Origin: an uncultured Bacteroidales bacterium
GTDB lineage: Bacteria > Bacteroidota > Bacteroidia > Bacteroidales > UBA10428
NCBI GenBank assembly: GCA_963822145.1
Contig: CAWGGG010000004.1
Location: forward strand, 1,252,972-1,316,971
Direction: 5' to 3'
DNA: 64,000 bases
The notes beneath the pieces were generated by a model. It searched no databases. It had not been told where the DNA came from and saw nothing but the letters and a program-made list of their open reading frames with translations. The position numbers and the translations under genes are program-made. This document shows, piece after piece, positions 34,898-57,604 of the stretch (its first letter is position 1; each line of letters opens with the position of its first letter).

Positions 34898-35217
34898 AAT
34901 AGGTAGAAATTAGGGATGTCGGCAAGTTATTACAACAGTGCGCATATTAAAAGCATTTAGAGAATTACTTATTAACTTTTTTATGAAAAGTAACCGTCTT
35001 ATCACGTGTAGGTTCATATCGTTATGCACATTCAGATCAGTTTCCCTTAACGAAATTAGTAATAAAAAAAATTCTTTCCTTACCTACCTACCACATTATC
35101 GTTCAGTTTATTACCTTGTAACACCAGTTTTTAGTGTGAAACGGAAAATAACCAGGGTCAATCCTCCGTTGTTATCACAAAAATCTTTTACCTTTGGCGT
35201 ATAAAAAAATAATTACT

Positions 35218-36078
35218 ATGAATAAAAATAAATTTAATTCCCTGATGGTACTGCTTGTATTGGCTTTATGCCTTCCAATTGCCTGTAAAAAAAGCAGTGA
35301 AACAAAAAAGAATATTGGTATTCAGCTCTACTCGCTGAGGGACAGCATGAGCGTGAATCCGGTGAAAACAGTTGAAGAGGTTGGCAAGATCGGCTACACT
35401 TTTGTTGAACCTGCTGGTTATTCCGACGGTAAGTTTTATGGTATGAGCCCGGCCGATTTTAAATCATTGATTGAAAATAACGCGATGATCGTGATCAGTT
35501 CTCATACCGGCCAGCCGGTTCCGGATTCAGCCAGGTGGGACAGCGTGATGACCTGGTGGGATCAGTGCATAGCTGCTCATGCCGCAATCGGAACGAAGTA
35601 TATTGTTCAGCCCTTTATGGACAGCATCGGCTATCAGTCTATTGCCGGATTACAACGCTATTGTGATTATTTCAATGCCATTGGAGAAAAATGCAAAGCC
35701 CAGGGAATGAAATTTGGTTATCACAACCATTCTGATGAATTCAAACAGGTAGAGGGTCAGGTGATCTATGACTATATGCTGGAACATACCGATTCCTCCA
35801 AAGTTGTTTTCGAGATAGATCTATACTGGGCTAAAGAAGGGGGTGCAGATCCTGTTGCCTATTTCACCAAATATCCCAGGCGTTTTGAACTCTGGCATGT
35901 TAAGGACGTGAAGGAAGTTGGCGCCAGTGGGACCATGGACTTTAAAACCTATTTTGAAAATGCTGAATTGTCCGGCATGAAATACCCGATCGTAGAGCAG
36001 GAAGAATATACGACAACCCCGCTCGAAGGCGTCAAGCAATCCTTTGAATTTCTTAACACTGCCGAGTACGTGAAATAA
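35218..36078 (+). CDS. Sugar phosphate isomerase/epimerase (xylose-isomerase-like TIM barrel), lipoprotein
   Basis: ORF with the ATG at 35218 (the track start at 35194 is a TTG). It has a signal plus lipobox LPIAC and the motif IGIQLYSLRD typical of the family. Confidence 0.75.
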   Translation: MNKNKFNSLMVLLVLALCLPIACKKSSETKKNIGIQLYSLRDSMSVNPVKTVEEVGKIGYTFVEPAGYSDGKFYGMSPADFKSLIENNAMIVISSHTGQPVPDSARWDSVMTWWDQCIAAHAAIGTKYIVQPFMDSIGYQSIAGLQRYCDYFNAIGEKCKAQGMKFGYHNHSDEFKQVEGQVIYDYMLEHTDSSKVVFEIDLYWAKEGGADPVAYFTKYPRRFELWHVKDVKEVGASGTMDFKTYFENAELSGMKYPIVEQEEYTTTPLEGVKQSFEFLNTAEYVK

Positions 36079-36132: not shown

Positions 36133-36172
36133 GTAGAGACGGTACTGCTGTGTACCGTCTCTACTTTTTTTT
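36133..36172 (+). terminator. Strong rho-independent terminator
   Basis: 13-bp perfect stem GTAGAGACGGTAC (36133-36145) / GTACCGTCTCTAC (36152-36164), a 6-nt loop, then 8 T. Confidence 0.85.
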
Positions 36173-42888: not shown

Positions 42889-45711
42889 ATGTCGGGTAAC
42901 AACTCTTTATACGAAAAAAATGTCATTTCGGTTTCAGGAGCAAGGGTGCATAATCTCAAAAACATCAGCCTTTCCATTCCGCGTGATAAATTAATTGTTG
43001 TTACTGGCCTTTCCGGTTCCGGTAAATCATCCCTGGCTTTTGATACGATTTATGCTGAAGGACAGCGCCGATATGTTGAGAGCTTATCATCCTATGCCCG
43101 GCAGTTCTTAGGCAGGATGAACAAACCTGAAGTAGACTTCATCAAAGGTTTGCCACCTGCCATTGCAATTGAACAAAAGGTGAATACCCGAAATCCCAGA
43201 TCCACGGTTGGTACATCAACTGAGATATACGATTACCTGAAACTGCTATTTGCCCGTATAGGCAAAACCTTTTCCCCTGTATCCGGGATAATGGTTAAGA
43301 AAGAAACCGCTACAGATGTGGCAGATTACATTACCTCCTTTCCGGAAGGAAGCCGGCTTCTGTTACTTTGTCCATTGAAGGGCAACGGGAATATAAGCTT
43401 TGCCCAAAAGCTGGAAGACCTCAAGCAACAGGGAATCACACGGCTTGAAATCAACGAAATGATTCTTAAACTCGAAGAGGCAATTGTGCAGTATAATCCC
43501 GAAGATGCCGGTGAGGTCAATATCGTGATTGACAGGATTGTGGTAGCTTATGACGAAGATTCCAGGAGTCGTTATGCCGACTCTGCCCAGATGGCTTTCC
43601 GGTCAGGAGAAGGAAAATGCATGGTTAAACCAGTCGATGGTGGGCCTGGGATGCGTTATTTCAGTGACACCTTTGAGGCTGATGGATTGCGGTTTGAAGA
43701 GCCTTCGGTACATATGTTCAGCTTCAATAATCCCATCGGGGCCTGTCCTCACTGTGAAGGATACGGGAAGGTCATCGGCATCGACGAAGACCTTGTCATT
43801 CCCAACAAGAATCTTTCAATATTTGAAGATGCAGTGGTGTGCTGGAAAGGGGAAAAGATGAACAAGTGGAAAGAAAAACTTATATACAGTGCTGATAAAT
43901 TTGGGTTCCCCATACACCGGCCCTATTTCGACCTGACAGAGGAGCAGCAACTGGCCCTTTGGAACGGAAATCGGTATTTTAAAGGTATTTATGCCTTTTT
44001 TAACTATCTTGAATCGAAGAAATATAAGATTCAGTACAGGGTTATGCTGGCACGCTACAGGGGCAAGACTGTCTGTCCGACCTGCCGGGGTACCCGACTG
44101 AAAAAAGAGGCCTCCTATGTTAAAATACAGGGAATCAGCATGCAGGATCTTGTTATTATGCCTGTTTCATTACTACGCAACTTCTTTCATGACATCAGGC
44201 TTAATCCGCATGATATGAAAATTGCCGGCAGAATTCTTACAGAAATACAAACCCGGTTACAGTATCTGACCGATGTCGGTCTTGGCTACCTCACCCTGAA
44301 CCGCCTCTCCTCTACCCTTTCGGGCGGAGAATCTCAGCGGATAAACCTGGCCACAACCCTGGGCAGCAGTCTGGTCGGTTCGCTTTATATCCTGGATGAG
44401 CCCAGTATTGGTTTGCACCCTCGTGACACCGGCCTGCTGGTAAAAGTATTGAAGAATCTTAAGAATATTGGCAATACTGTGCTGGTGGTAGAGCATGAGG
44501 AGGAAATCATACGAGCGGCAGATGAAATCATTGATATCGGACCACTGGCTGGTCGGATGGGTGGCGAGATTCTTTTTCACGGCTCCTTCCGCGAACTTAT
44601 TCAAAAACATGATGGTCTGACTGCCCAATACCTGCGTGGAGAGATGAAGATCGATGTGCCACCGGTGCGGAGAAAATGGAGCAATTATATTGAAATTTCA
44701 GGTGCCAGGGAAAACAATCTGAAGAACATCAATGTCAGAATCCCGCTGAATACCATGACGGTTATTACAGGGGTAAGCGGCTCGGGAAAATCATCGTTGG
44801 TTAAAGGAATTATTTATCCTGCTCTGAATAAACTCATCCAGGGTGCCGGAGATAAAGGTGGAAAATTCCAGGACCTATCAGGGGACCTGCATCTTCTTCA
44901 GGGCGTTGAATTTGTTGATCAGAACCCTATTGGCAAATCAACCCGGTCGAATCCGGTCACCTATATCAAAGCCTTTGATGAAATCAGAAAACTCTTTGCC
45001 GGTCAGACCCTTTCAAAGTATAACGGATTTACACCTTCTCATTTTTCTTTTAATATCGATGGTGGCAGATGTGAGGAGTGCCAGGGAGAGGGAGAGATCA
45101 AAGTGGAAATGCAGTTTATGGCGGATGTTCATCTGATTTGTGACAGTTGTCACGGACGCCGGTTCAAGGACGAGGTACTTGAGGTACATTACGAAGGTAA
45201 AAACATACATGATATTCTTGAACTCACCATTGAGGAAGCCATAAGCTTTTTCGGCTCTCAAAGAGGTTCCACGGAGAAAGTCATTGCCCGCAAGCTGACA
45301 CCCCTGGCTGATGTTGGGCTTGGATATGTAAAACTGGGTCAAGCCTCAAGCACCCTGAGTGGTGGTGAAAGTCAGCGCGTTAAGCTGGCCTCCTTCCTGG
45401 GCACAGAAAAAGAAGAGAAATCTGTACTTTTTATCTTCGATGAACCCACCACCGGTTTGCATTTTCATGACATCAGGAGACTTCTGGATGCCTTCAATGC
45501 ACTCATTACTAAGGGACATTCCGTTTTAATTGTGGAACACAATCCTGATGTAATAAAAACTGCTGATTGGGTAATTGACCTTGGACCTACTGGAGGTGAT
45601 GCGGGTGGTTACCTGGTTTGTGAGGGAACTCCTGAACAACTGGTGCAATGTGAAAATTCTTTTACCGGAAAGTTCCTTGCAGGAAAACTAAAAGTGAAAA
45701 GTGAAAAATGA
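42889..45711 (+). CDS. uvrA: Excinuclease ABC subunit A
   Basis: 940-aa ORF. It has two ABC ATPase modules ([25 protein letters not shown]; LSGGESQR twice) and zinc-finger cysteines. Confidence 0.95.
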
Positions 45712-45777: not shown

Positions 45778-46218
45778 CTATTTGTCCTGAAATCCAAACA
45801 TAATGGCCACACAGCCGCTGTTTGGAAATTCGCTTTTCTGAGCGGATACAGGGACTTTTATAACTATTTTAAGCTGTTGGCTTGATTCAAGCTTAAAATC
45901 CCAGGTACCATTCGTATCATGTTGCTTATTATCATAAAGAACATTTTTATAAGCATCAACAACCTGGAATTCAATAGGGGGCAAAGCTTCTGAACCACAA
46001 ATTGCCAAACGGTAGCTCTGACCCGAATAGAATGTTTTGTAAAGTTCTGCTTCTTCACCTTCAGTTAATATTGCCGCATGATAATTACCATCATGTATAT
46101 AACCCGTAAGCTCCAGTTTGCACAATTTCTTGGCAAATCCTTTGCATTGAGCATTGACCTTTAAACTGAATGTTACAAGAACGGCCAGGGTTACTATATA
46201 GGGGAGATACTTTTTCAT
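45778..46218 (-). CDS. Hypothetical secreted protein
   Basis: 146-aa ORF with a signal peptide (MKKYLPYIVTLAVLVTFSLKVNAQ) and four Cys. No family recognised. Confidence 0.6.
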   Translation of the reverse strand: MKKYLPYIVTLAVLVTFSLKVNAQCKGFAKKLCKLELTGYIHDGNYHAAILTEGEEAELYKTFYSGQSYRLAICGSEALPPIEFQVVDAYKNVLYDNKQHDTNGTWDFKLESSQQLKIVIKVPVSAQKSEFPNSGCVAIMFGFQDK

Positions 46219-46230
46219 ACGTATAGAATT

Positions 46231-47172
46231 TTATTGAACGAAATTATTTCTTAATGACTGAACAGCAGCCTGAAGCTCCAAAAATGCTTCAGCAGTATAG
46301 TTGATTTTGGTTTGTGAATTTAGCATGGCAACTCCGTTGGAATCAGCTTCACCAACTTTTACAGCAGAGGTCTGAACTTCAATTTTTTCATACGCGGCTT
46401 TCAGGCTATGAAGTTCATTAATGAGTTCAACAATATCCCTGTTTTCTTCACCCGTTGCTTTCTGCTTGTTGTCTTGTAACATCCTTTCAACAATACTGAA
46501 TGATAATTTCTGCTCAGCAATACGATCAGACAGTTTATTTCCTTTAACCGGACTGTTACCGACCAATTGTGACCCCAGATAAAGTCCCTCGATCCATCCT
46601 CCAACCAGTACCATGGCAGCAACATCCTGCTGGTCATTTTCTTTCAGGTATGAACTTGAATTCAGAAAAGTTTCGGATATGATATCCATTACCACATCAC
46701 GGTTATTCAGGTTCTGTTCCAGCCGCTTCATGGTTTCTTCATCAATAGCATCGCTGATGCCCATTTCCGTTGCCAGCTGCTTTGTAACATCCATGTATTT
46801 CAGGGAGGTCTGAGCCTGGTCGAACAGGCAGGCAAAGCTGAGATCTGTAGTGTAAATGCCCAGATTCAGGGCTTTACTTTTATTGGTTGAATACATTACA
46901 GCATTTTTAAGATCATTCAGTGCCATCTCGTTGTATGCAGCACCTGCTGATTTAATAAGCATAGCCGTTTCCAGCGGTGAGGGCAGGGAATAGAATATCT
47001 TTTTCGCTTTATCAATATCACTAAAAATATCTTCTTCTGTCAAAAAATCCTCAAAACCTACTTCTTTCCCATCCTGACCTTTTTTCCCTGATCGACATGA
47101 ATCGTTTAGCAGGAGGATTCCTAACAAAACGATAAGACTGACAAACCGCATATTAAAGTAATGATGTCGCAT
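46231..47172 (-). CDS. Hypothetical lipoprotein
   Basis: 313-aa ORF with a signal plus lipobox-like LLNDSC. It lies 12 nt upstream of the 146-aa ORF. Confidence 0.6.
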   Translation of the reverse strand: MRHHYFNMRFVSLIVLLGILLLNDSCRSGKKGQDGKEVGFEDFLTEEDIFSDIDKAKKIFYSLPSPLETAMLIKSAGAAYNEMALNDLKNAVMYSTNKSKALNLGIYTTDLSFACLFDQAQTSLKYMDVTKQLATEMGISDAIDEETMKRLEQNLNNRDVVMDIISETFLNSSSYLKENDQQDVAAMVLVGGWIEGLYLGSQLVGNSPVKGNKLSDRIAEQKLSFSIVERMLQDNKQKATGEENRDIVELINELHSLKAAYEKIEVQTSAVKVGEADSNGVAMLNSQTKINYTAEAFLELQAAVQSLRNNFVQ

Positions 47173-47362
47173 GAGTTAAGTGTTTAAAAGTTGACTTCTT
47201 AAATATATAAGAATCATAGTTGTAGTAAAATTACTATAATAAACGACTAAATTTTATTAAAGTTACTGTTTTGTTCTTTTTTTTGGTAGGTTACAATGAA
47301 CATGATATCAACAAATACTATCCCACCCGACTACAAATTGAATTACAATAAATTAATATGGT

Positions 47363-48028
47363 TTACACAGCGCCGGGATTGGGATTCCCAGATTCCTGCC
47401 CCCTGTAAAACCTGCAGTATTCTTTAATTCCGCAAGTGCTGCATTTTGGTTTTCGCGCCAGACAAACATACCTGCCGTGCAGTATAAGCCAATGATGGGC
47501 AAGGGAAAGCAGGTCTCTGGGGAAATGCTTGACCAATTGTTTTTCTGCAGCTTCAGGAGACCTGGCTCCAGTGGTTAGTCCCAGTCTGGCTGAAACCCTG
47601 AAAACATGCGTATCAACCGGCATGGCCGGATTTCCGAATGCCACAAGCGTAATAACATTTGCTGTTTTGCGACCTACGCCCGGCAGTGTCATCAATTCAT
47701 CAACAGATTCAGGCACCTGGCCGTTAAAATCCTCCATGATCTTCTTCGCCATGGCTGAAAGATGTTTCGCCTTGTTATTGGGATAGGTACAGGACCGAAT
47801 GTACTGAAAAATATCCGCGGGAGTGGTATTTGCCATTGCTTCCGGTGTGGGAAATTTCGCCAGCAGGGCAGGCGTGATAAGATTTACCCTTTTGTCGGTA
47901 CATTGAGCGGACAGAATAACGGAAACAACCAGACCAAAGGGATTGACATACTCCAATTCTGTTTCAGCAACGGGCACATATTCCAGGAAGTAGCTGATGA
48001 TTTTGGAGTATCTTTCCTTAATATTCAT
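47363..48028 (-). CDS. nth: Endonuclease III (DNA glycosylase/AP lyase)
   Basis: 221-aa ORF. HhH-GPD motif LPGVGRKTANV and an Fe-S cluster loop CLARKPKCSTCGIKEYC. Confidence 0.9.
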   Translation of the reverse strand: MNIKERYSKIISYFLEYVPVAETELEYVNPFGLVVSVILSAQCTDKRVNLITPALLAKFPTPEAMANTTPADIFQYIRSCTYPNNKAKHLSAMAKKIMEDFNGQVPESVDELMTLPGVGRKTANVITLVAFGNPAMPVDTHVFRVSARLGLTTGARSPEAAEKQLVKHFPRDLLSLAHHWLILHGRYVCLARKPKCSTCGIKEYCRFYRGQESGNPNPGAV

Positions 48029-48114
48029 TTGTTGGGTATCTTATGCAGCAAATTTAACACTTAAATCGATTTGTCATCCTCCGGTTCTTTAGCAGTGATA
48101 AATCTTGCCTTGCA

Positions 48115-48146
48115 TTTGTTTTTTAAAATTACTATGCCTATATTTG
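48115..48146 (+). promoter_or_regulatory. Candidate Bacteroidetes-type promoter (-33 TTTG, -7 TAtaTTTG) for the aromatic operon leader
   Basis: TTTG lies at 48115-48118 and TATATTTG at 48139-48146, with 20-bp spacing. The motif pair ends 19 nt upstream of the leader ORF ATG. Confidence 0.45.
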
Positions 48147-48164
48147 CATCATTATAATTTATAC

Positions 48165-48242
48165 ATGAATATAGTATCAAACATAGCCGCTTTCTTTTAC
48201 TTTTATTTTTGGGTAAAACCTGAAGGGGCTTTGTTTGTATAA
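48165..48242 (+). promoter_or_regulatory. Candidate attenuation leader peptide ORF MNIVSNIAAFFYFYFWVKPEGALFV*
   Basis: Hand translation gives 25 codons. Seven consecutive aromatic codons (F F Y F Y F W) occupy 48192-48212. The ORF lies between the promoter motif and a terminator, directly upstream of pheA. Confidence 0.6.
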
Positions 48243-48265
48243 CATTTAGATATAAAAGCAAAGAG

Positions 48266-48292
48266 GTCCCGCAAGAACGGGACTTTTTTTTT
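48266..48292 (+). terminator. Intrinsic terminator (attenuator) 25 nt upstream of pheA
   Basis: GTCCCG (48266-48271), loop CAAGAA, CGGGAC (48278-48283), then 9 T (48284-48292). Confidence 0.7.
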
Positions 48293-48316
48293 ATTTAAAC
48301 TGAAAAGTTAACAAGC

Positions 48317-49177
48317 ATGAGCGAGTCCACCACATCACCAAAACGAATAGCTATTCAGGGCGGATACGGCGCATTTCATGAAATTGCCGCCTATGGCTAT
48401 TTTGAAAATGAAGAGATTGAGATTGTTCCCCGGAATACATTCAAGGACTTGTTCAGTGCTTTAAAACAAGGGAAGGTCGACTACGGGATTACGGCTATTG
48501 AGAATTCCATTGCGGGAAGTATCCTTCCCAATTATACATTGCTGCTTGAATCGAACCTGAAGATTGTTGGCGAAATATACCTTCGTATAAAACAAAATCT
48601 GGTGGCATTGCCAGGTCAGACCATTGCTGATATCCGTGAGGTATATTCACATCCCATGGCCATTTTACAATGTCAACGCTTTTTCGACGATCATCCCGGT
48701 ATAAGGCTTATTGACAGCATCGACACAGCTTTGAGTGCCAAAGAAATCGCTGACAAAAATATGACCGGCGCAGCAGCAATATCTTCAGGCCGGGCTGCAG
48801 AAAAGTATCATCTGTCGATAATTGCAGAGAGTATTGAAACCCATAAAAAAAACTATACACGTTTCCTGATCCTAAAGGGAAAAAATGGAGAGATCCATGA
48901 TGCAGAAGCTGTTAACAAGGCATCACTTACCTTTGCCCTGGCCCATAAGATCGGTGGCCTTTCGAAGGTACTCTCCATCCTGTCCTATTATGAGATCAAC
49001 CTGGCTAAAGTTCAATCGATGCCCATTATTGGCAAGGACTGGGAATACCAGTTCTTTGTGGATGTTGAAATTGACAATTACCAGCATTATTATCAGGCCA
49101 TTGAAGCTATTAAACCGTTTACCAGCGGTCTTCAGATTCTTGGTGAGTATTTAAAAGGTAAATCAATCATGGAATAA
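48317..49177 (+). CDS. pheA: Prephenate dehydratase (with a C-terminal ACT domain)
   Basis: 286-aa ORF. Motif IAIQGGYGAFHEIAA plus PDT and ACT organisation. Confidence 0.88.
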   Translation: MSESTTSPKRIAIQGGYGAFHEIAAYGYFENEEIEIVPRNTFKDLFSALKQGKVDYGITAIENSIAGSILPNYTLLLESNLKIVGEIYLRIKQNLVALPGQTIADIREVYSHPMAILQCQRFFDDHPGIRLIDSIDTALSAKEIADKNMTGAAAISSGRAAEKYHLSIIAESIETHKKNYTRFLILKGKNGEIHDAEAVNKASLTFALAHKIGGLSKVLSILSYYEINLAKVQSMPIIGKDWEYQFFVDVEIDNYQHYYQAIEAIKPFTSGLQILGEYLKGKSIME

Positions 49178-49178
49178 A

Positions 49179-50264
49179 ATGAAAGTAACATTAAAACTAG
49201 AGAAATTTGAATTCAAAGGTGTTCCGAAAGAAAGACCATTGATGATGGCTGGTCCGTGCAGCGCTGAAACCGAAGAACAGGTCATGACCACTGCAAGACA
49301 GCTGAAGGATTATGGTATCCGCATATTCAGAGCCGGGCTCTGGAAACCCCGTACAAGACCAAATGCTTTTGAAGGTGTTGGAAAGGAAGGGTTGCCCTGG
49401 CTGAGGCGGGTAAAAGAGGAACTGGGCATGTATACAGCTACTGAAGTAGCCAACGTCAAGCATGTTTATGATGCCCTGAAGGCCGGAATTGATATCATCT
49501 GGTTGGGCGCAAGAACAACAGCAAATCCTTTTGCAGTGCAGGAAATTGCTGATTCCCTCCGTGGTGTGGACGTACCGGTCCTTGTCAAAAATCCGATCAA
49601 CCCGGATGTGGAGCTTTGGATCGGGGCATTTGAAAGGTTGAACAGTGCCGGTATCCATAAACTGGCAGCCATCCACCGGGGATTTTCAATCTACAGCAAG
49701 ACCCTATACCGGAATAATCCGCAGTGGGAGATTCCAATCGAATTAAAGCGGTTGATTCCGGACCTGCCTATCATTACTGATCCCAGTCATATCTGCGGCA
49801 GTCGTGAATTGTTGTTTGAAATATCACAGAAAGCCATGGACCTTGATTTTGACGGTCTTATTGTAGAAACACACTGCAATCCCGATCAAGCCCTGAGTGA
49901 CGCACAACAGCAGCTTACTCCGGAAAACCTTAACAAATTAATCTCCAGGCTGGTGCTCAGAAGTGCCAGCATACAAAATAATGTATTACTTTCGACCCTG
50001 GAAGAACTGAGACACGAGATTGACAAATATGATGATAAGCTGATGGAGATTTTTGAACACCGTATGGCCGTTTCGCGCAAAATAGGTCAGTATAAAAAGC
50101 AGAACAGCATTACCATCTTGCAGACCACCCGTTGGGATGAAATCATCCGGAATAAAATTGATCAGGCTGCTAAAAAAGGTTTGGGCGAGGAATTCATTAT
50201 AAAAATTTTCCGTGCTATTCACGAAGAATCCATTAATCACCAGACCCGTGTAATGAATGAATAG
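49179..50264 (+). CDS. Bifunctional 3-deoxy-7-phosphoheptulonate (DAHP) synthase (type I-beta) / chorismate mutase
   Basis: 361-aa ORF. DAHPS/KDO8PS-like N-terminal part (MMAGPCSAE...IFRAGLWKPRT...). C-terminal CM type 2 helices (LEELRHEIDKYDDKLMEIFEHRMAVSRKIGQYK). Confidence 0.88.
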   Translation: MKVTLKLEKFEFKGVPKERPLMMAGPCSAETEEQVMTTARQLKDYGIRIFRAGLWKPRTRPNAFEGVGKEGLPWLRRVKEELGMYTATEVANVKHVYDALKAGIDIIWLGARTTANPFAVQEIADSLRGVDVPVLVKNPINPDVELWIGAFERLNSAGIHKLAAIHRGFSIYSKTLYRNNPQWEIPIELKRLIPDLPIITDPSHICGSRELLFEISQKAMDLDFDGLIVETHCNPDQALSDAQQQLTPENLNKLISRLVLRSASIQNNVLLSTLEELRHEIDKYDDKLMEIFEHRMAVSRKIGQYKKQNSITILQTTRWDEIIRNKIDQAAKKGLGEEFIIKIFRAIHEESINHQTRVMNE

Positions 50265-51293
50265 ATGAAAACCATAGAGATTAACACTGATGCAAAAGTT
50301 TCCAGAATCATTATCGGTGAAAGTCTAAAAAACCTTTCCGCTTATGTCCCGTCCGGTAAGGCAATCATTATTACTGATGTAACCTTACACAGGATATACG
50401 GGAAAGACTTTCCGCCCTTTCCGGTAATTGCCATGGGTTTGGGCGAGTCCCATAAAACCCTTGAAACACTTGCATACATTTTTGAAAGGCTCATTGAATA
50501 TGAGACTGACCGGTCGACCTTTATTATAGCCATTGGTGGCGGGATTGTATGCGATGTGGCTGGTTTTGCGGCCTCAGTTTATATGCGCGGCCTGCACTTT
50601 GGCTTTGTTTCCACCACCCTGCTTTCACAGGTTGATGCCAGTGTGGGCGGAAAAAATGGTGTTAATTTTCTGGGTTATAAAAACATGCTGGGTGTTTTTA
50701 ACCAGCCTGATTTTGTGCTTGTTGACACCGGTATGCTTCAGACCCTTGATCAAAGGGAATTTCGCTCAGGCTTTGCTGAAATAGTAAAGGCCGCTGCCAT
50801 TAAGGATGCTTCCCTTTTCAGCTACCTGGAGAATCATCACCAGGATGCCCTTGTGAATAATACTGACGTTCTGGAAAAACTCATCTATGAGGCCGTTCTA
50901 ATCAAGTCGCAGGTGGTACAGCAAGACGAAAAGGAAAAAGGGGAAAGGAAAAAGCTCAATTTCGGACATACCTTTGCCCACGCCATTGAAAGGAAAACAG
51001 GGATGTTGCATGGTGAAGCTGTTAGTATTGGAATGGCCCTTGCAGCAGCATTTTCAGTAAAACTGGGCTTCTTGCAGCAATCGGAATCCGACCGTATCTC
51101 TCAGATCCTCAATAGCCTGAAACTGCCTACAAAATGGGAAAAAAACTGTTCGGATCTGGTTTCCGACATGAAAAAAGATAAAAAACGTGAGGGCGACTAT
51201 TTGCATATGGTTTTTTTAAGTCATATCGGCAATGCCCTAATTGAAAAGATCTCATTTAATCATTTGGAAAAACTTAGTCATGATTTGTGCTAG
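50265..51293 (+). CDS. aroB: 3-dehydroquinate synthase
   Basis: 342-aa ORF. Motifs IAIGGGIVCDVAGFAAS, VDASVGGKNGVN and NFGHTFAHAIE. Confidence 0.9.
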   Translation: MKTIEINTDAKVSRIIIGESLKNLSAYVPSGKAIIITDVTLHRIYGKDFPPFPVIAMGLGESHKTLETLAYIFERLIEYETDRSTFIIAIGGGIVCDVAGFAASVYMRGLHFGFVSTTLLSQVDASVGGKNGVNFLGYKNMLGVFNQPDFVLVDTGMLQTLDQREFRSGFAEIVKAAAIKDASLFSYLENHHQDALVNNTDVLEKLIYEAVLIKSQVVQQDEKEKGERKKLNFGHTFAHAIERKTGMLHGEAVSIGMALAAAFSVKLGFLQQSESDRISQILNSLKLPTKWEKNCSDLVSDMKKDKKREGDYLHMVFLSHIGNALIEKISFNHLEKLSHDLC

Positions 51294-51918
51294 CATAGCA
51301 GAAAAAAATGTGGAAAAGTGCATTCAGGCACTTGATATGGTTGAAATGGCTGAAATCAGGATCGATCTCGCGGAATTCAACAATGATGAAATCCGGTCGG
51401 TATTTTCAAGACGAAAAAAAACAATTGCCACCTGCAGACCAGGAAAAATAAGAGAGGAAGAACGCGTGGAAATTCTGAAAATTGCCATTGAATCCGGTGC
51501 AACATTTGTAGATATTGAATACGAGGCCACTCCGGAATACAAAAATGATCTCATTGAATTTGCCCACAGTCATCAGTGCGACGTCATCATTTCCTATCAC
51601 AACTACGACAGGACTCCCGAACTGGATGAACTTGAAGAAATTGTTAAAAGCTGTTATACTCAGGGCGCGGACCTCGCCAAGATTGCCACACACATTAATG
51701 TTAACCGCGATAATTCAAAGATCCTGTCGCTTTACAAAGCACCTGGCAGACTGGTTGCGATAGGCATGGGTGACCTGGGAAGAATCAGCCGGATCGTAGC
51801 CCCCTTCCTGGGAGCTGAGTTTACTTATGCCGCGCTCAATGAGGATGAAGCCACTGCGCCGGGACAGATAAGCTATGAACGACTCAATAAGTTTATTCTT
51901 GAAATTCAACAAATTTGA
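51280..51918 (+). CDS. aroD: Type I 3-dehydroquinate dehydratase
   Basis: Start chosen at the ATG at 51280 (MICASIAEKN...), which overlaps the aroB end by 14 nt. The track start at 51241 lies deeper inside aroB. Motifs: EIRIDL, ISYHNYDRTP, DLAKIA, MGDLGRISR. Confidence 0.8.
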   Translation: MICASIAEKNVEKCIQALDMVEMAEIRIDLAEFNNDEIRSVFSRRKKTIATCRPGKIREEERVEILKIAIESGATFVDIEYEATPEYKNDLIEFAHSHQCDVIISYHNYDRTPELDELEEIVKSCYTQGADLAKIATHINVNRDNSKILSLYKAPGRLVAIGMGDLGRISRIVAPFLGAEFTYAALNEDEATAPGQISYERLNKFILEIQQI

Positions 51919-51924
51919 CCCTGT

Positions 51925-52932
51925 ATGAATAGTTTTGGAAAAATATTCAGGATCAGCATTTTCGGGGAATCCCATGGCACACATGTCGGGATTACCCTGG
52001 ATAATTGTCCTGCCGGATTGCCGCTCAAAACAGAAGACTTTCTGACAGAACTTGCACGCCGCCGCAGCGGAGCAAAAGGTACTACGCCCCGTAAGGAGGC
52101 TGATCTGCCACACATTATCAGCGGTGTGTTCAATGAACATACCACGGGTGCTCCCATAACCATCATATTTGAAAATACAAATACAAGATCGCGTGATTAT
52201 ACTGCGCTTCGGGACACACCACGACCGGGCCATGCCGATTTCGTGGCACTGAAAAAGTATGGGGGGTTTGAGGATTATCGGGGTGGCGGACATTTTTCAG
52301 GACGTCTCACCCTGGGATTGGTTGCTGCAGGAGTTATCGCCCGAAAGTTATTATTGCCAGCGACCATTCATGCCCATATACTGGAAGTGGGTGGTAGTGT
52401 AAACATCGATGAAGCTATTGAACGGGCTGAGGAAAAGCAGGATTCCATAGGTGGAATCATCGAATGTTCAGCTAAGAATATGCCTGTTGGTATGGGTGAA
52501 CCATTTTTTGATTCCATGGAATCGGTGCTCAGTCACATGATGTTTTCAATACCCGCAATTAAAGGAATTGAATTCGGTTCAGGTTTCGCAGCGGCAAAAA
52601 TGTGGGGCAGCGATCATAATGATAAAATCATATCACCGGATGGCCTTACCGCAACCAATCATTCCGGGGGTATCAATGGCGGAATCAGTAATGGCAATGA
52701 TCTGGTATTCAGGGTTGTGGTCAAGCCTACTTCCAGCACTCACCAGAAACAGACTACCATCAACCTCCGGAGCGGAACCATGGTGGACCTTGAAATTGAG
52801 GGCCGTCACGACACCTGTATCGCCCTCAGGGTACCCGTTGTAGTGGAGGCTGCCACAGCCATTGTACTGGTAGATCTGATGATGCAGTCGCAGTTGATTC
52901 CGAGAATAGCAGTCAAGGCTGCAGACTATTAA
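51925..52932 (+). CDS. aroC: Chorismate synthase
   Basis: 335-aa ORF. Motifs FGESHG, GRHDTC and the N-terminus MNSFGKIFRISIFGESHG. Confidence 0.9.
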   Translation: MNSFGKIFRISIFGESHGTHVGITLDNCPAGLPLKTEDFLTELARRRSGAKGTTPRKEADLPHIISGVFNEHTTGAPITIIFENTNTRSRDYTALRDTPRPGHADFVALKKYGGFEDYRGGGHFSGRLTLGLVAAGVIARKLLLPATIHAHILEVGGSVNIDEAIERAEEKQDSIGGIIECSAKNMPVGMGEPFFDSMESVLSHMMFSIPAIKGIEFGSGFAAAKMWGSDHNDKIISPDGLTATNHSGGINGGISNGNDLVFRVVVKPTSSTHQKQTTINLRSGTMVDLEIEGRHDTCIALRVPVVVEAATAIVLVDLMMQSQLIPRIAVKAADY

Positions 52933-52940
52933 CTGAATTT

Positions 52941-52988
52941 AACAACAACAACCAACAACCAACAACTAACAACTTACAACTATTAACT
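52941..52988 (+). repeat. Tandem heptamer array (AACAACY-type, about 7 units) between aroC and tyrA, flanked by a 14-bp direct repeat
   Basis: aacaac aacaacc aacaacc aacaact aacaact tacaact attaact. The direct repeat ACTATTAACTGAAT lies at 52925-52938 and 52979-52992. Confidence 0.95.
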
Positions 52989-52993
52989 GAATA

Positions 52994-53770
52994 ATGAAAA
53001 TCTTAATACTCGGTGCCGGCAAAATGGGTTCGTGGCTGATTGAATCACTGTGTCTCGACTATGAAGTTGCCGCCTATGATAATGATCTTACGCGGCTCAG
53101 GTACTTTTTCAACACCGCAAAACTGGTTTCCTATGAAGAAATACGAAGTTTCAACCCCGATATGGTCATAAATGCCGTTAACCTCGAAAGAACGGTTCCT
53201 GTTTTCCAGGAAATCCTACCCTATTTGGGCAAGAACTGCATCCTGGCCGATATTACTTCTGTCAAGAACGGATTACAGCGGTTCTACCCTGAATCGGGTC
53301 GAAGGTATGTTTCCACCCACCCCATGTTCGGGCCTACTTTTGCCAACCTCAAGGACCTTACAGGCCACAGCGCCATAATCATCCGTGAATCCGATGAGGA
53401 AGGCAAAGCCTTCTTCAGGAATTTCTTCGAATCCTTTAATCTGAATATTTTTGAATACTCTTTCACGGAACACGATCAAACCATTGCTTATTCGTTATCG
53501 ATACCCTTTGCTTCTACCATGATCTTCGCCGCCTGCATGAAAAAACAGGAGGCACCGGGCACAACTTTCCGGAAACACCATGAAATAGCCAAGGGACTTT
53601 TATTCTCCGAGGATGATTTCCTTCTTTCAGAAATTATGTTCAGTCCCTTTACCCTGGAGCAGCTCGAAAAAATCAGCGATCAGCTGGAACACCTCAGGGA
53701 AATTATCAAAGAGAAGGATACCGCCAAAATGAGACAGTTTTTAAGTTCTTTGCGCAAGAATATCCGGTAG
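52994..53770 (+). CDS. tyrA: Prephenate dehydrogenase
   Basis: 258-aa ORF. Rossmann motif MKILILGAGKMGSW and HPMFGP. Confidence 0.8.
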   Translation: MKILILGAGKMGSWLIESLCLDYEVAAYDNDLTRLRYFFNTAKLVSYEEIRSFNPDMVINAVNLERTVPVFQEILPYLGKNCILADITSVKNGLQRFYPESGRRYVSTHPMFGPTFANLKDLTGHSAIIIRESDEEGKAFFRNFFESFNLNIFEYSFTEHDQTIAYSLSIPFASTMIFAACMKKQEAPGTTFRKHHEIAKGLLFSEDDFLLSEIMFSPFTLEQLEKISDQLEHLREIIKEKDTAKMRQFLSSLRKNIR

Positions 53771-53772
53771 TT

Positions 53773-55005
53773 TCAACGGCAGTTTTCGATAATATACTTA
53801 ATGGCGCGGTTTTCACCCATACCTCTCGCCCTTTCCAGGTCAGAGCAACCATTTTCTTTATCGCCTGATTCCATCTTGGCGACTCCAAGGTACATCCAGG
53901 TTTCTGCGTCATCGGGATTCAGGTCAAGAGACATGGACAAATCCCCGATCGCGTAACGGTATGTAGTAGTTTTTAAATAAGTTTTACCCCTTGATTTATA
54001 GTAGTCACTGTTATTAGGGTCTTCTTTGAGATTCCTGTTGAAATATTTCAGTGCGTTGATATAATCTCCGGCTTCATAACAGTATTCGCCACATTGATGA
54101 CCGGCTTGCTGGTCATTTTCGAAGTATTTCAGGTAAAACAACATATCCTTAATGGCTGGCTCCCATGACTGCATAGCTGCGTATGCCGCTGCACGCTGCG
54201 GGTAAAGGTTAAAAGCGGCTGGATCAAGCCTGATGGCCTTATTAAAATCATTCACGGCATCCCGGTATCTTCCGGCCATAAAATAGGCCTGCGCCCGTTG
54301 CGGATATATTTTTGTGAAGTTTTTATCCAGATCCAGCGCTGCAGAATAGTCGGAAAGTGAAGCAGCATAGTTACCCAGTTCAAACATCACAGTCCCCCTG
54401 AGGGCCAGCAATTTAACATTATCCGGTGATGCTTCCAGGGCGATTGTGAGTAAGGAACCTGCTTCATCGAACGATTTTCTTTTACAGTAATAAGCCGCCT
54501 CGGCAGTGATCTTTTCTTCCTTACTATACCAATCCTGCTCCCATAAGGCTTCCCAATCAGCGGTTGCCTGTAATCTGTCAAAGGCCGGATCCTTTTTAAG
54601 GCTGTCCTCAGGTAACCTGAATTCAGATTGGAGATGGCGCTTTAAAAAAGCAATGGCATCTGCACTTTCTCCTGAAACAGCATAGACACGGGCCAGCCAG
54701 ATATCAGCAATGCCCGGGTAGATTAAATTCGCCTCTATAAAATCTTCAGCTGCAGCAGGATAATCCTTAAGCTGCAGCAGCGATGTGCCTCTCTTAATAA
54801 ATATCTGTTCATCAGCATTATTACGGGATATCGCTGCTGAGAAACCCTCGACCGCCTTCTGATACTCCCCTTTCCTTAAACTTGCGGAGCCCGAAAGATA
54901 AGCTGCATCAGGAGTTTGTGAGTAAGCATGGCTCCAGGTGGCAATAAAGGCCATTATAAAGGCAACTGCCAGTAAATTTTTATTTTGTTTCTGTCTCACC
55001 TGCAT
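53773..55005 (-). CDS. Secreted tetratricopeptide-repeat (TPR) protein
   Basis: 410-aa ORF with a signal peptide and many TPR-like A..Y/A..A repeats. Its start overlaps the upstream T9SS gene by 26 nt. Confidence 0.75.
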   Translation of the reverse strand: MQVRQKQNKNLLAVAFIMAFIATWSHAYSQTPDAAYLSGSASLRKGEYQKAVEGFSAAISRNNADEQIFIKRGTSLLQLKDYPAAAEDFIEANLIYPGIADIWLARVYAVSGESADAIAFLKRHLQSEFRLPEDSLKKDPAFDRLQATADWEALWEQDWYSKEEKITAEAAYYCKRKSFDEAGSLLTIALEASPDNVKLLALRGTVMFELGNYAASLSDYSAALDLDKNFTKIYPQRAQAYFMAGRYRDAVNDFNKAIRLDPAAFNLYPQRAAAYAAMQSWEPAIKDMLFYLKYFENDQQAGHQCGEYCYEAGDYINALKYFNRNLKEDPNNSDYYKSRGKTYLKTTTYRYAIGDLSMSLDLNPDDAETWMYLGVAKMESGDKENGCSDLERARGMGENRAIKYIIENCR

Positions 55006-57604
55006 ATCCTTCTACGTAAACGTGAATAAATCCCACGATTGTCCTGATCTCTACTCCACTTATTCTTGGTTCATATACATCGCATATATAATAATAAACT
55101 CCTGAAGAGACCTTGTTGTTTGAGTTCCTGTAATTACCCTCCCAGTTAATGGCGGGATCACTGGTATCGTAAACAAGCTGTCCATAACGGTTGAAAATCT
55201 TCATATCAACCTTTTCAACAACGTTATTGAGGTTGTTTGAAACAAACTTGTCGAAGATTCCGTCGCCGTTTGGAGTAAATACATTGGGCAATTCATACAT
55301 AATGCATTGATCAACGCAGATCCGCGTGGAAAAAGTGCTTTCATTCTCAAAAGAATCCACTGCTGTCACGGCATAGCAGCCAGCCAGCATGAATCCTTCG
55401 TTCATCTGGTGGTAAAAGACGGTGTCAGTGGCCGGAGATACACTGGTAAGTGAATCCAGGGGTGTTGCAACATCCGGAGAATAATAGATGTTATAGCGAA
55501 TTACATCATCCGAACAAGTACGGTTCGGATTGGTCCAGGTAAGGACATTCATCAAACTGTCGCAACGCGATTCGACTGTTAATAAAGGCGGGCACGGAGC
55601 AGTGACATCAACAGGGGTACCGCAACTGACATGTGATAGATTGGCATTTGTAAAGTTAACACCATCAATAGGTCTCCAGCCAATACTTTTCACCTGATAG
55701 CAATACGTTTCACCATTCTTTAATCCTTTATCAATAAAAATATTGTCCTCGGACATCGCAATGGAATCAAAATCCAGGCTGGCATTCTGCCGGTAGATCA
55801 CATACCGGTCATTGATCCAGGGGGCTTTCTTTCTGATATCAAGCGTTAACTGGTTATCCTCGGGAGTAATTAGGATATAGAGCGATGAAGCTGTTTCACT
55901 TTCTCCCGGCTTCATTTCAAAACGGTTGCCTGGTGTGTTATTGAACATAATCACCCTGTAATAATAAGGATATCTGATGGTGTTGCGTGGTGAATCGATG
56001 AAGGTAGTATCATTCAGATTCAAGGTCTGAACGGAATCAATCAGTATAAAATCATTCGGATCCGGAGTATCGGAACGATAAATCAGGTAAACATAGGGCC
56101 CTGGCGCGGCAACCGGATCAAAATTCCGTGGTTTGGCCCAGGATATAAAAATGCTTCCGGAAGCTTCATCCACCCGGGTCACGCTGACATTAAGAAGGGA
56201 TGGAAACCCGGGTACAAGGGAACTGCAGGTTTCATTTGAAACAAAACTTTCGCTTCCATCATGATAATAAGCAGTGACCAAATAGCAATAATCGATGCCC
56301 TGTATCAATCCCTCTCCATTATTGTCATCCGTAAAGGCAGTGCCGTTCTTCCCTTCTGTTCTGGCGATCTTTACAAAGCCCGTGTAAGACGGTACGCCAT
56401 TTTCACAACTGTCCGGGGTAAATCCGAAGCTGCTTTCACGCCGGTAAATGTAATAGCCCAGAACATTCCCGCAATTGTTCTGATCCCAGGTCAGGTCAAT
56501 CTCAGAACTGGTGGAAGTTGCCTGAAGGTTTTCCGGGCCCGGAGCCAGAACCCTGATCGTAAAATTATCAATATCCACCAGGCTGATATCATTGTTGATA
56601 TCTTCGGCTTTGAGGGTGACCTGGTATGGCTGATTCCGGATGTGATCGCAAGTGGTCTGCCAGCTGAAATTGTAAGTTGCAAATCCTCTGCCGGATGCTA
56701 CATGGGTAAAAGTTGCAGGAGAGTTCTCCACAATAAATGGGCCCCCATTCATATTCAGAATGATAGAATCATTATCCATATCGGTGGTAGTCACCTGAAA
56801 CTCAACCAAAGCGCCAGCAGTAAAACAAAGATCAGTCAGGGGAGGATTAACCGGTGGATTATTGTCAGTTTTATAAACATCGATCTGCATATCCCGGACA
56901 ATATTGCCGATTTTCACACCCTGCCGCCATTCTTCGATGTTCATGGCCACATTGTATTTCCCGGTATCGGTTGGTGTATACCATACCAGGTCACCCACAA
57001 CGGGGTCCACATAAAATGTATCGCTGAACGTCGGAAGCACATAACTGGAAATGGGTTTACCATCCTGTCCGGTACAAACTGTCAGCTTGTAGGAAAGGCT
57101 GTCTCCGTCGGGATCAAAAGCCGCGGGATTGTGGATAAAAATATGTCCCAGTGCGGCCTTGTCAATAGGATAATTCAACAATACCGGGGTGCTGTTGTTC
57201 CCAATTTCAGGGCTTATGATCAGGGTGGTCTTGATCGAAAATATTACATCCACCGAATTCGGAATATTATTAATGCCATAATTTCGGTTCGGATCCTGCA
57301 TTAAAACCTGATAAATGCCCGGACCCGGAAAAGTATGTGTTGTGATGTATTTGTTCCAGTAATAGTAATTTGGCAGTTCAATTCTGCTGTCGAGGCCGAC
57401 AACTGAAGACGAGTTATCACCCCATTCAACCGTCAGTTGTGAGCGGTTAGCAGCACTCAGGGTATACGTAAAGGTTGTTACGGTAACCTCATAGGTATAA
57501 CCTGCCACCTGTTTGAATGTAATCTCCCCTGCCCTGTTATGCGTGGCAAAAAGCATGGCAGGCAGCAGTAAGAGTGCAGAAAATATGAAAACGCATTTTT
57601 TCAT
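54980..57604 (-). CDS. T9SS type B sorting-domain (gliding-motility C-terminal domain) surface protein
   Basis: 874-aa ORF with a signal peptide. The C-terminus is NVFTPNGDGIFDKFV...MKIFNRYGQLVYD...GVYYYICDV. Confidence 0.85.
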   Translation of the reverse strand: MKKCVFIFSALLLLPAMLFATHNRAGEITFKQVAGYTYEVTVTTFTYTLSAANRSQLTVEWGDNSSSVVGLDSRIELPNYYYWNKYITTHTFPGPGIYQVLMQDPNRNYGINNIPNSVDVIFSIKTTLIISPEIGNNSTPVLLNYPIDKAALGHIFIHNPAAFDPDGDSLSYKLTVCTGQDGKPISSYVLPTFSDTFYVDPVVGDLVWYTPTDTGKYNVAMNIEEWRQGVKIGNIVRDMQIDVYKTDNNPPVNPPLTDLCFTAGALVEFQVTTTDMDNDSIILNMNGGPFIVENSPATFTHVASGRGFATYNFSWQTTCDHIRNQPYQVTLKAEDINNDISLVDIDNFTIRVLAPGPENLQATSTSSEIDLTWDQNNCGNVLGYYIYRRESSFGFTPDSCENGVPSYTGFVKIARTEGKNGTAFTDDNNGEGLIQGIDYCYLVTAYYHDGSESFVSNETCSSLVPGFPSLLNVSVTRVDEASGSIFISWAKPRNFDPVAAPGPYVYLIYRSDTPDPNDFILIDSVQTLNLNDTTFIDSPRNTIRYPYYYRVIMFNNTPGNRFEMKPGESETASSLYILITPEDNQLTLDIRKKAPWINDRYVIYRQNASLDFDSIAMSEDNIFIDKGLKNGETYCYQVKSIGWRPIDGVNFTNANLSHVSCGTPVDVTAPCPPLLTVESRCDSLMNVLTWTNPNRTCSDDVIRYNIYYSPDVATPLDSLTSVSPATDTVFYHQMNEGFMLAGCYAVTAVDSFENESTFSTRICVDQCIMYELPNVFTPNGDGIFDKFVSNNLNNVVEKVDMKIFNRYGQLVYDTSDPAINWEGNYRNSNNKVSSGVYYYICDVYEPRISGVEIRTIVGFIHVYVEGYAGETETK

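Follow-up and report, generated by a model that had tools for sequence, protein, structure and literature searches.

The DNA analyzed here is a 64,000-nt stretch (the window) from an uncultured Bacteroidales bacterium, and the element in question is the leader region at 48115-48292, immediately upstream of pheA, which a sequence-only reading had proposed to be a leader-peptide transcription attenuator of an aromatic amino acid operon. The operon begins with pheA and continues with a gene for a bifunctional 3-deoxy-D-arabino-heptulosonate 7-phosphate (DAHP) synthase/chorismate mutase (DAHPS/CM), aroB, aroD, aroC, and a tyrA-like gene, a content that Pfam searches confirmed (Table 1). The genes are tightly packed, with a convergent tetratricopeptide repeat gene after the tyrA-like gene, and they cover the Phe and Tyr branches together with enzymes of the common pathway; there are no trp genes. 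The synteny of pheA, DAHPS/CM, aroB, aroD, and aroC is conserved in related Bacteroidales, with the DAHPS/CM gene directly 3' of pheA in 61 of 78 relatives.

Table 1. Features of the pheA leader and of the operon that follows it (positions in the window)
Feature	Position	Strand	Basis
Candidate -33 promoter element, TTTG	48115..48118	+	read from sequence
Bacteroidota-type -7 promoter box, TAnnTTTG (TATATTTG)	48139..48146	+	read from sequence
Leader open reading frame, ATG 48165, 25 codons plus stop, MNIVSNIAAFFYFYFWVKPEGALFV	48165..48242	+	sequence and homologous mini-ORFs in relatives
Region 1, 5' strand of P1 (1:2 anti-antiterminator), inside leader codons 5-8	48178..48188	+	minimum-energy fold
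Regulatory codon run, TTC TTT TAC TTT TAT TTT TGG (FFYFYFW; 4 Phe, 2 Tyr, 1 Trp)	48192..48212	+	
Region 2, shared strand: P1 3' strand (48227-48237) or antiterminator 5' strand (48225-48241)	48225..48241	+	folds
Antiterminator hairpin (2:3)	48225..48270	+	fold of nascent RNA 48222-48277, -13.3 kcal/mol, z = -2.3
Intrinsic terminator (3:4), GTCCCG 48266-48271, loop CAAGAA, CGGGAC 48278-48283, T9 48284-48292	48266..48292	+	
pheA (prephenate dehydratase), first regulated gene	48317..49177	+	Pfam PF00800, E = 1.3e-57
Bifunctional DAHP synthase/chorismate mutase	49179..50264	+	Pfam PF00793 and PF01817
aroB (3-dehydroquinate synthase)	50265..51293	+	Pfam PF01761 and PF24621
aroD (type I 3-dehydroquinase), likely ATG 51280 (mechanical ORF from TTG 51241)	51280..51918	+	Pfam PF01487, E = 1.9e-44
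aroC (chorismate synthase)	51925..52932	+	Pfam PF01264, E = 2.8e-116
tyrA-like prephenate dehydrogenase, last operon gene	52994..53770	+	Pfam PF02153, E = 3e-10

The features on which the sequence-only reading was built are all present at the positions it gave: a pair of promoter motifs, a 25-codon open reading frame (ORF) with seven aromatic codons, and a GTCCCG/CGGGAC hairpin followed by nine T residues. Only the distance from the T-tract to the pheA start codon had to be corrected, from 25 to 24 nt. The leader region has a GC content of 33% and is T-rich, its promoter is of the Bacteroidota type, and its mRNA carries no Shine-Dalgarno sequence. The two promoter elements are 20 nt apart. In 64 of 75 relatives, a TAnnTTTG box lies at most 90 nt 5' of the ATG that opens the leader, usually at a distance of 18 to 20 nt, and the upstream TTTG is weakly conserved, being found at a spacing of 17 to 23 nt in only 19 of these 64. 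In Flavobacterium psychrophilum, transcription has been mapped to begin about 6 nt past the box (PMC9723704); by analogy, transcription in the window probably begins near 48152, which would leave a 5' untranslated region (UTR) of about 13 nt.

Folding of the leader RNA yielded three alternative hairpins. The minimum-energy fold of the whole leader (48150-48300; -44.8 kcal/mol, z = -6.9) contains P1, which spans 48174-48240 (-24.1 kcal/mol, z = -5.0) and encloses the aromatic run, together with the terminator (-15.8 kcal/mol, z = -5.2), whose stem can be extended to 48260-48289 by A-U pairs. The antiterminator forms in the nascent RNA: G48225-28 pairs with U/C48267-70, 48229-36 with 48256-63, and 48238-41 with 48251-54, leaving AGG 48264-66 as a bulge, so that beyond GGGG:UCCC and the 3-nt bulge the inner stem joins CUUUGUUU.UAUA with UAUA.AAAGCAAAG. 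Since this hairpin uses the 5' arm of the terminator, the two are mutually exclusive. The terminator is the top-ranked terminator-like site within 46000-56000 in a consensus scan. We considered and rejected the possibility that it belongs to the neighboring gene, as nth (47363-48028) is divergent and on the opposite strand, and the possibility that the hairpin is a dispersed repeat, as GTCCC-N4-12-GGGAC is found a single time in the window and, among relatives, solely upstream of pheA.

Conservation was examined in 80 loci of relatives whose PheA is 65 to 88% identical, using one genome per species for the scan. A Phe- and Tyr-rich mini-ORF was found upstream of pheA in 78 of the 78 loci with enough upstream sequence; the other two, with only 61 and 118 nt, could not be assessed. 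The mini-ORF starts with ATG and has at least six aromatic residues in eight at 77 loci, and at locus L037 (2847-2968) the same leader, complete with terminator, starts with GTG (MKINNAYSFFFFFYFSKVS) and was for that reason missed by ATG-only scans. In 75 of the 77 ATG-started loci, a terminator made up of a GC-rich hairpin and a T-tract, usually T8-10, follows 40 to 70 nt past the leader stop, and from there the distance between the T-tract and pheA ranges from 6 to >200 nt. The leader peptides are 14 to 34 residues long and comprise 68 distinct sequences, among which only the aromatic run is conserved, with the flanking residues following the constraints of RNA pairing.

Such ORFs are confined to this position. 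No mini-ORF with at least seven aromatics in eight was found in the approximately 925,000 strand-bases that related loci contribute beyond the zones upstream of pheA, and 90 were found inside these zones (450 nt each, 36 kb in total, nested ATGs counted); the ORF at 48165 is the only one in the 64-kb window. A covariance model of P1 and the terminator (R1) matched the window once, at 48162-48291, with 106.5 bits, and scored 89.5 bits at L037. Of the 89 matches that R1 gave across 564 kb, all but two lie immediately 5' of pheA and on the same strand; the two exceptions (L045 and L033) are weak minus-strand matches that overlap the terminator.

In some relatives, two complete units, each with a Phe- and Tyr-rich leader ORF and its own terminator, stand in series upstream of pheA. 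Such tandem attenuators were found at L027 (2721-2989), L031 (2709-2982), L032 (2699-2983), L034 (2689-2984), L058 (2696-2974), L060 (2702-2980), L069 (2648-2945), L072 (2651-2950), and L076 (1042-1340), and probably also at L064 and L070. The peptide of the second unit is more divergent, often with W or C, and R1 matches both units. The window has a single unit.

The hairpins recur in the relatives. Of 72 relatives, 66 formed the terminator in full-length minimum-energy folds, and in 65 region 2 was paired back, as in P1, to the part of the leader ORF that precedes the end of the aromatic run, chiefly to ORF nt 14-26. For the antiterminator, the RNA folded began 9 nt past the last aromatic codon and stopped just short of the 3' arm of the terminator, this being the stretch that would be left free with a ribosome on the last aromatic codon and the polymerase not yet at the 3' arm. 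Under these conditions, 93% of the 75 sequences folded into a hairpin joining the GGG after the leader stop to the CCC of the terminator 5' arm, with a mean z of -3.7, in line with the earlier proposal that an alternative pairing sequesters this arm. The GGG of region 2 is present in 72 of 75 relatives. It starts 10 or 13 nt after the aromatic run in 44 of 72 sequences and, in most, 0 to 2 nt after the stop codon.

Covariation was assessed on three alignments: A2 (MAFFT, 63 sequences), A3 (MAFFT, 33 close relatives), and A4 (model-fitted, 89 sequences). The terminator was 94.8% paired on A2, with 22 double-change cells, a value reached in none of 500 shuffles. P1 was 82.7% paired on A3 (35 to 53% when slid), with 23 double-change cells at four pairs (0/500 shuffles). 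On A4, P1 and the terminator together were 84.8% paired (29 to 59% when slid), and 16 of their 19 pairs covaried, including all nine pairs of P1 (0/500 shuffles); as A4 was fitted to the model, its counts lean toward this structure. RNAalifold on the 63-sequence MAFFT alignment recovered the terminator alone, and P1 was only 66% paired there because two leader subfamilies are shifted against each other in region 1; A3 and A4 resolved this problem. The outer 4 bp of the antiterminator were 98.5% paired on A3, where the GGG of region 2 is fully conserved and the fourth pair is AU in 15 sequences, GC in 10, GU in 7, and other in 1 (1/500 shuffles). A linked position in regions 2, 3, and 4 reads G/C/G in 11 sequences, A/U/A in 24, and G/U/A in 26, and A opposite C is almost never seen. 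Of the checks that the sequence-only reading had recommended, the search of related loci showed aromatic mini-ORFs and terminators to be conserved, with covariation in P1 and the terminator, and folding gave P1 with the terminator in the full-length RNA and the antiterminator in the nascent RNA.

The antiterminator that the same reading had drawn fared less well. Its 8-bp pairing of GGGGCTTT (48225-32) with GAGGTCCC (48263-70) is possible (-9.2 kcal/mol), and its outer 4 bp are right, but the register beyond them is not: on A2 this register was 87% paired without covariation, and sliding it by -1 was nearly as good. It was replaced by the longer hairpin of about 17 bp described above.

With respect to what is sensed, Phe and Tyr codons occur in all 75 of the 75 leaders compared, with means of 5.6 Phe and 2.5 Tyr in a run of 5 to 13 codons, and both synonymous codons are in use for each (TTT 246, TTC 176, TAT 105, and TAC 85). 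Only 19 of the 75 contain Trp, each as one terminal codon. Since Phe and Tyr are universal and Trp is not, the conserved signal is Phe plus Tyr, which matches an operon that holds pheA, tyrA, and common-pathway genes but no trp genes. The single UGG in the window may contribute but is not a feature of the family; sensing of all three aromatic amino acids, as had been proposed, is therefore not supported as a family trait.

The ORF, the three alternative helices with their conservation and covariation, and the spacing between them, all observed in the sequences, lead us to conclude with considerable confidence that the leader is a classical ribosome-mediated (leader-peptide) transcription attenuator coupling expression of pheA-DAHPS/CM-aroB-aroD-aroC-tyrA to the availability of charged tRNA-Phe and tRNA-Tyr. 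The original proposal of ribosome-mediated attenuation is strongly supported by a mini-ORF at 78 of 78 loci, a terminator at 75 of 77, three exclusive hairpins, and compensatory changes in P1 and the terminator. Transcription would begin a few nucleotides past the TAnnTTTG box, and the 25-codon leader would be translated with RNA polymerase still inside the leader. When Phe or Tyr is scarce, the ribosome would stall in the FFYFYF(W) run, covering region 1 and the run itself and leaving GGGG at 48225 free; regions 2 and 3 would then pair, the 5' arm of the terminator would be sequestered, and the polymerase would enter pheA. When both are plentiful, the ribosome would reach the stop codon (UAA 48240 in the window, a UGA abutting the GGG in most relatives) and cover region 2, which would let the GTCCCG/CGGGAC-U9 terminator form and stop transcription near 48292. 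If the leader is not translated, region 1 would pair with region 2 as P1, the terminator would form, and the operon would be off. Ribosomes cover about 9 to 12 nt 3' of the A site; we infer from this footprint that a stalled ribosome leaves region 2 free and that a terminating ribosome covers it. The geometry of the footprint, the coupling of transcription to translation, the termination event, and the response to amino acids are thus the predicted parts of the model.

Several observations weigh against this interpretation. The antiterminator and terminator overlap by only 4 to 6 bp, and the terminator together with an inner AU-rich hairpin is more stable at equilibrium than the antiterminator (-19.9 versus -13.3 kcal/mol), so the switch must depend on cotranscriptional kinetics and on transcription-translation coupling, which to our knowledge has not been demonstrated in Bacteroidota. 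Covariation of the antiterminator is weak family-wide: on A4, its outer 4 bp were 95.8% paired, but GGG/CCC is invariant, only the fourth pair varies, 63 of 500 shuffles reached the observed value, and sliding by -1 still left 93% paired. In statistical terms, the antiterminator is therefore backed chiefly by the folds of individual sequences and by geometry rather than by covariation. A resemblance to the Rfam family Phe_leader (RF01859), which the window matches end to end with 37.7 bits (E = 4.5e-4; the gathering score of 55 is not reached), was discounted as independent evidence because similarly low matches are scattered in Bacteroides thetaiotaomicron, where an annotation pipeline lists 11 Phe_leader hits of 18 to 26 bits across the genome under 'RNA thermometer' (PMC7366714 supplement). 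Subthreshold matches of this kind are common in AT-rich Bacteroidales DNA and are not diagnostic.

The stop codon of the window leader is also atypically placed. Relatives read TGG RTA ACC TGA followed directly by AGGGGC, including the closest one available (L082; PheA 91% identical), which has this short form. At 48213-48222, the window has GTAAAACC where relatives have GTAACC, and these 2 extra nt put the usual UGA (48221-23) next to region 2 out of frame, so that the peptide is longer by seven residues and ends at UAA 48240-48242. This form may truly exist as a variant, or it may stem from misassembly of a homopolymer (an AAAA run lies at 48216-48219); a second contig encoding an identical PheA begins 29 nt upstream of pheA. 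The long form also occurs in about 13 of 75 relatives and in F. psychrophilum, and it is compatible with the attenuator model because a terminating ribosome would still cover region 2.

Other explanations of the locus were weighed against the same data. The leader may act mainly posttranscriptionally, with the mini-ORF and hairpins controlling pheA translation, mRNA stability, or Rho-dependent polarity. The terminator is just 24 nt before the pheA start, where a stem could affect initiation on an mRNA without a Shine-Dalgarno sequence, and transcription-translation coupling in Bacteroidota is not known to have been characterized. However, a GC-rich stem followed by T8-10 in nearly all relatives is the signature of intrinsic termination rather than of start site masking, sequestration of the start site is not conserved given a distance of 6 to >200 nt from the T-tract to pheA, and read-through past the leader is condition dependent in F. 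psychrophilum (PMC9723704); we therefore regard a mainly posttranscriptional role as improbable. The strong structure of the leader RNA (z = -6.9 for 48150-48300) would suit an attenuator that is independent of translation, in which a protein, tRNA, or metabolite binds the leader (as in a T-box, TRAP-like, or riboswitch system) and the mini-ORF is incidental. This appears very improbable, as a search of 47000-49500 at a threshold as loose as E <= 10 gave no T-box or riboswitch match, the placement of the stop codon is linked to region 2, and the ORF, its start, its frame, and its 5 to 13 aromatic codons have been kept across 68 peptides with synonymous variation.

There is slighter reason still to regard the mini-ORF as the gene of a functional hydrophobic micropeptide that has an ordinary terminator of its own and plays no part in regulating pheA. 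As a class, the peptides are conserved, and trans-acting leader peptides are known, such as peTrpL in Sinorhizobium. Nevertheless, only the aromatic run is kept, in peptides of 14 to 34 residues whose flanks track RNA pairing; the ORF is always directly upstream of pheA and on the same strand, the antiterminator links it to the terminator, and most loci have no visible separate promoter motif between terminator and pheA. Finally, a T-rich ORF and a hairpin might co-occur by chance in an AT-rich intergenic region; the region is 33% GC and T-rich, and GTCCC-N-GGGAC alone is expected 0.4 times per window. The absence of any comparable ORF in the roughly 925-kb control, the conservation of the arrangement at all 78 loci that could be assessed, at PheA identities as low as 65%, and the covariation already refute this explanation, to which we attach next to no probability.

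Ribosome-mediated attenuation upstream of pheA has a precedent in the phylum. For the pheA-aspC3 leader of F. psychrophilum (THC0290_N_0195; Guérin et al. 2021, ISME Commun 1:33, PMC9723704), hairpins for a terminator and an antiterminator were predicted, read-through was seen to vary with growth condition, and expression was highest in minimal medium; it is conserved in other Flavobacteriaceae genera and had no Rfam hit. Its mini-ORF also carries a run of F, Y, and W codons (MNTNNTFYSNNSFYFYWNIGRDCYMVI) and, like that of the window, reads through region 2. GGGAUUGU lies 10 nt after UGG and is complementary to ACAAUCCC in the 5' arm of the terminator, which is followed by T9, and when the published 170-nt RNA was folded, the same P1, antiterminator, and terminator were computed. 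The two leaders thus share an F/Y(W) mini-ORF, a switch of the form GGG(A/G).../...(U/C)CCC/GGG(A/G), a U-tract, and an identical spacing of 10 nt from UGG to GGG. In an nhmmer search with the Bacteroidales profile A2, the F. psychrophilum RNA was the only match among 2000 shuffled decoys, although at 15.3 bits (E = 0.002) the match is weak and may partly reflect shared constraints. The F. psychrophilum leader differs in belonging to Flavobacteriia rather than Bacteroidia, in having an interrupted run (FY...SFYFYW) rather than 7 to 9 consecutive aromatic codons, in preceding pheA-aspC3 rather than pheA-DAHPS/CM-aroB-aroD-aroC-tyrA, and in having transcriptome support, whereas the window element is known from its sequence. 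The suggestion that a Bacteroidota example was undocumented is therefore superseded by a leader of the same design.

Nor are the curated leader families exclusively proteobacterial, as had been supposed. Rfam contains Bacteroid-trp (RF01692; Weinberg et al. 2010, PMC2864571), a leader peptide-type cis-regulator of the trp operon in Bacteroidota, which shows that such regulatory logic was already recognized in the phylum. That family uses Trp codons (e.g., WWW in F. psychrophilum) upstream of trpE, whereas the leader described here has one Trp codon and precedes phe/tyr and common-pathway genes; no match to RF01692 was found in 47000-49500 even at E <= 10. T-boxes were likewise without a match in 47000-49500 at E <= 10 or at the gathering score in the window, and neither the window nor any of 20 relatives gave a match to an Rfam family at its gathering score.

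The logic of the element is also that of E. coli pheL-pheA (Rfam RF01859, Phe_leader), with a short ORF bearing a Phe run, 1:2, 2:3, and 3:4 hairpins, and a terminator before pheA. In the window, in contrast to pheL, Tyr codons are interleaved with Phe codons, the operon adds tyrA and common-pathway genes, the promoter is of the Bacteroidota type, and there is no Shine-Dalgarno sequence; the element is probably an analogue of pheL rather than a homologue. Multivalent attenuators are well known in E. coli, where the thr leader contains Thr and Ile codons and the ilvGMEDA leader contains Ile, Leu, and Val codons. Like the Phe/Tyr leader, they mix codons for amino acids that share the regulated operon, but they respond to other amino acids and have no sequence relationship to it. 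Attenuators in Bacteroidetes/Chlorobi are reportedly mentioned in the abstract of a 2004 study by Vitreschak et al., and the survey of Naville & Gautheret 2010 does not cover Bacteroidetes. The leader is thus neither a new kind of system nor the first Bacteroidota example; it is a well-documented new member, captured by no Rfam family.

These results offer a well-supported explanation of the control of an aromatic amino acid operon in an uncultured Bacteroidales lineage. They also delimit, by an alignment and a covariance model, a family of 89 instances, which annotation pipelines have left unannotated because no Rfam model captures it. The known repertoire of mechanisms is unchanged. Classical ribosome-sensing attenuation with precise spacing nevertheless appears to work in bacteria that initiate translation without a Shine-Dalgarno sequence, and transcription-translation coupling in Bacteroidota thereby becomes directly testable. 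Added interest comes from the tandem duplication of whole units in some relatives and from the implied coupling of ribosome and polymerase on such mRNAs. More tentatively, the Bacteroidia and Flavobacteriia leaders might together represent an ancient, phylum-wide Bacteroidota family of bivalent Phe/Tyr attenuators, absent from Rfam and present in tandem in about a dozen Bacteroidales lineages, although we hold this broader view to be somewhat less probable than its opposite. If this view is correct, the strict spacing of stall and stop sites on a short 5' UTR (about 13 nt) that lacks a Shine-Dalgarno sequence would mean that transcription and translation are tightly coupled in Bacteroidota, a phylum for which we know of no study of this coupling.

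The leader locus is flanked by a uvrA-like ATP-binding cassette ATPase gene (42889-45711, plus strand) and the endonuclease III gene nth (47363-48028, minus strand). Of the 45 relatives that have nth, 40 show it divergent from the leader promoter, and the 136-nt intergenic region between nth and the leader therefore probably holds two back-to-back promoters. The strongest intrinsic terminator of the window lies elsewhere, at 36133-36172 (plus strand; a 14-bp GC-rich stem, -22.8 kcal/mol, then T8). As the only other strong terminator upstream of a gene in the window, it was considered as a second attenuator and rejected: it has no leader ORF and, 55 nt past the point where ORF 35194-36078 stops, seems simply to end that gene in the ordinary way; it sits 51 nt ahead of the next gene. 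The window also contains a single ORF of 4364 codons at 21803-34897 (minus strand) and, at 54980-57604 (minus strand), a gene for an 874-aa protein with a CHU_C type IX secretion signal.

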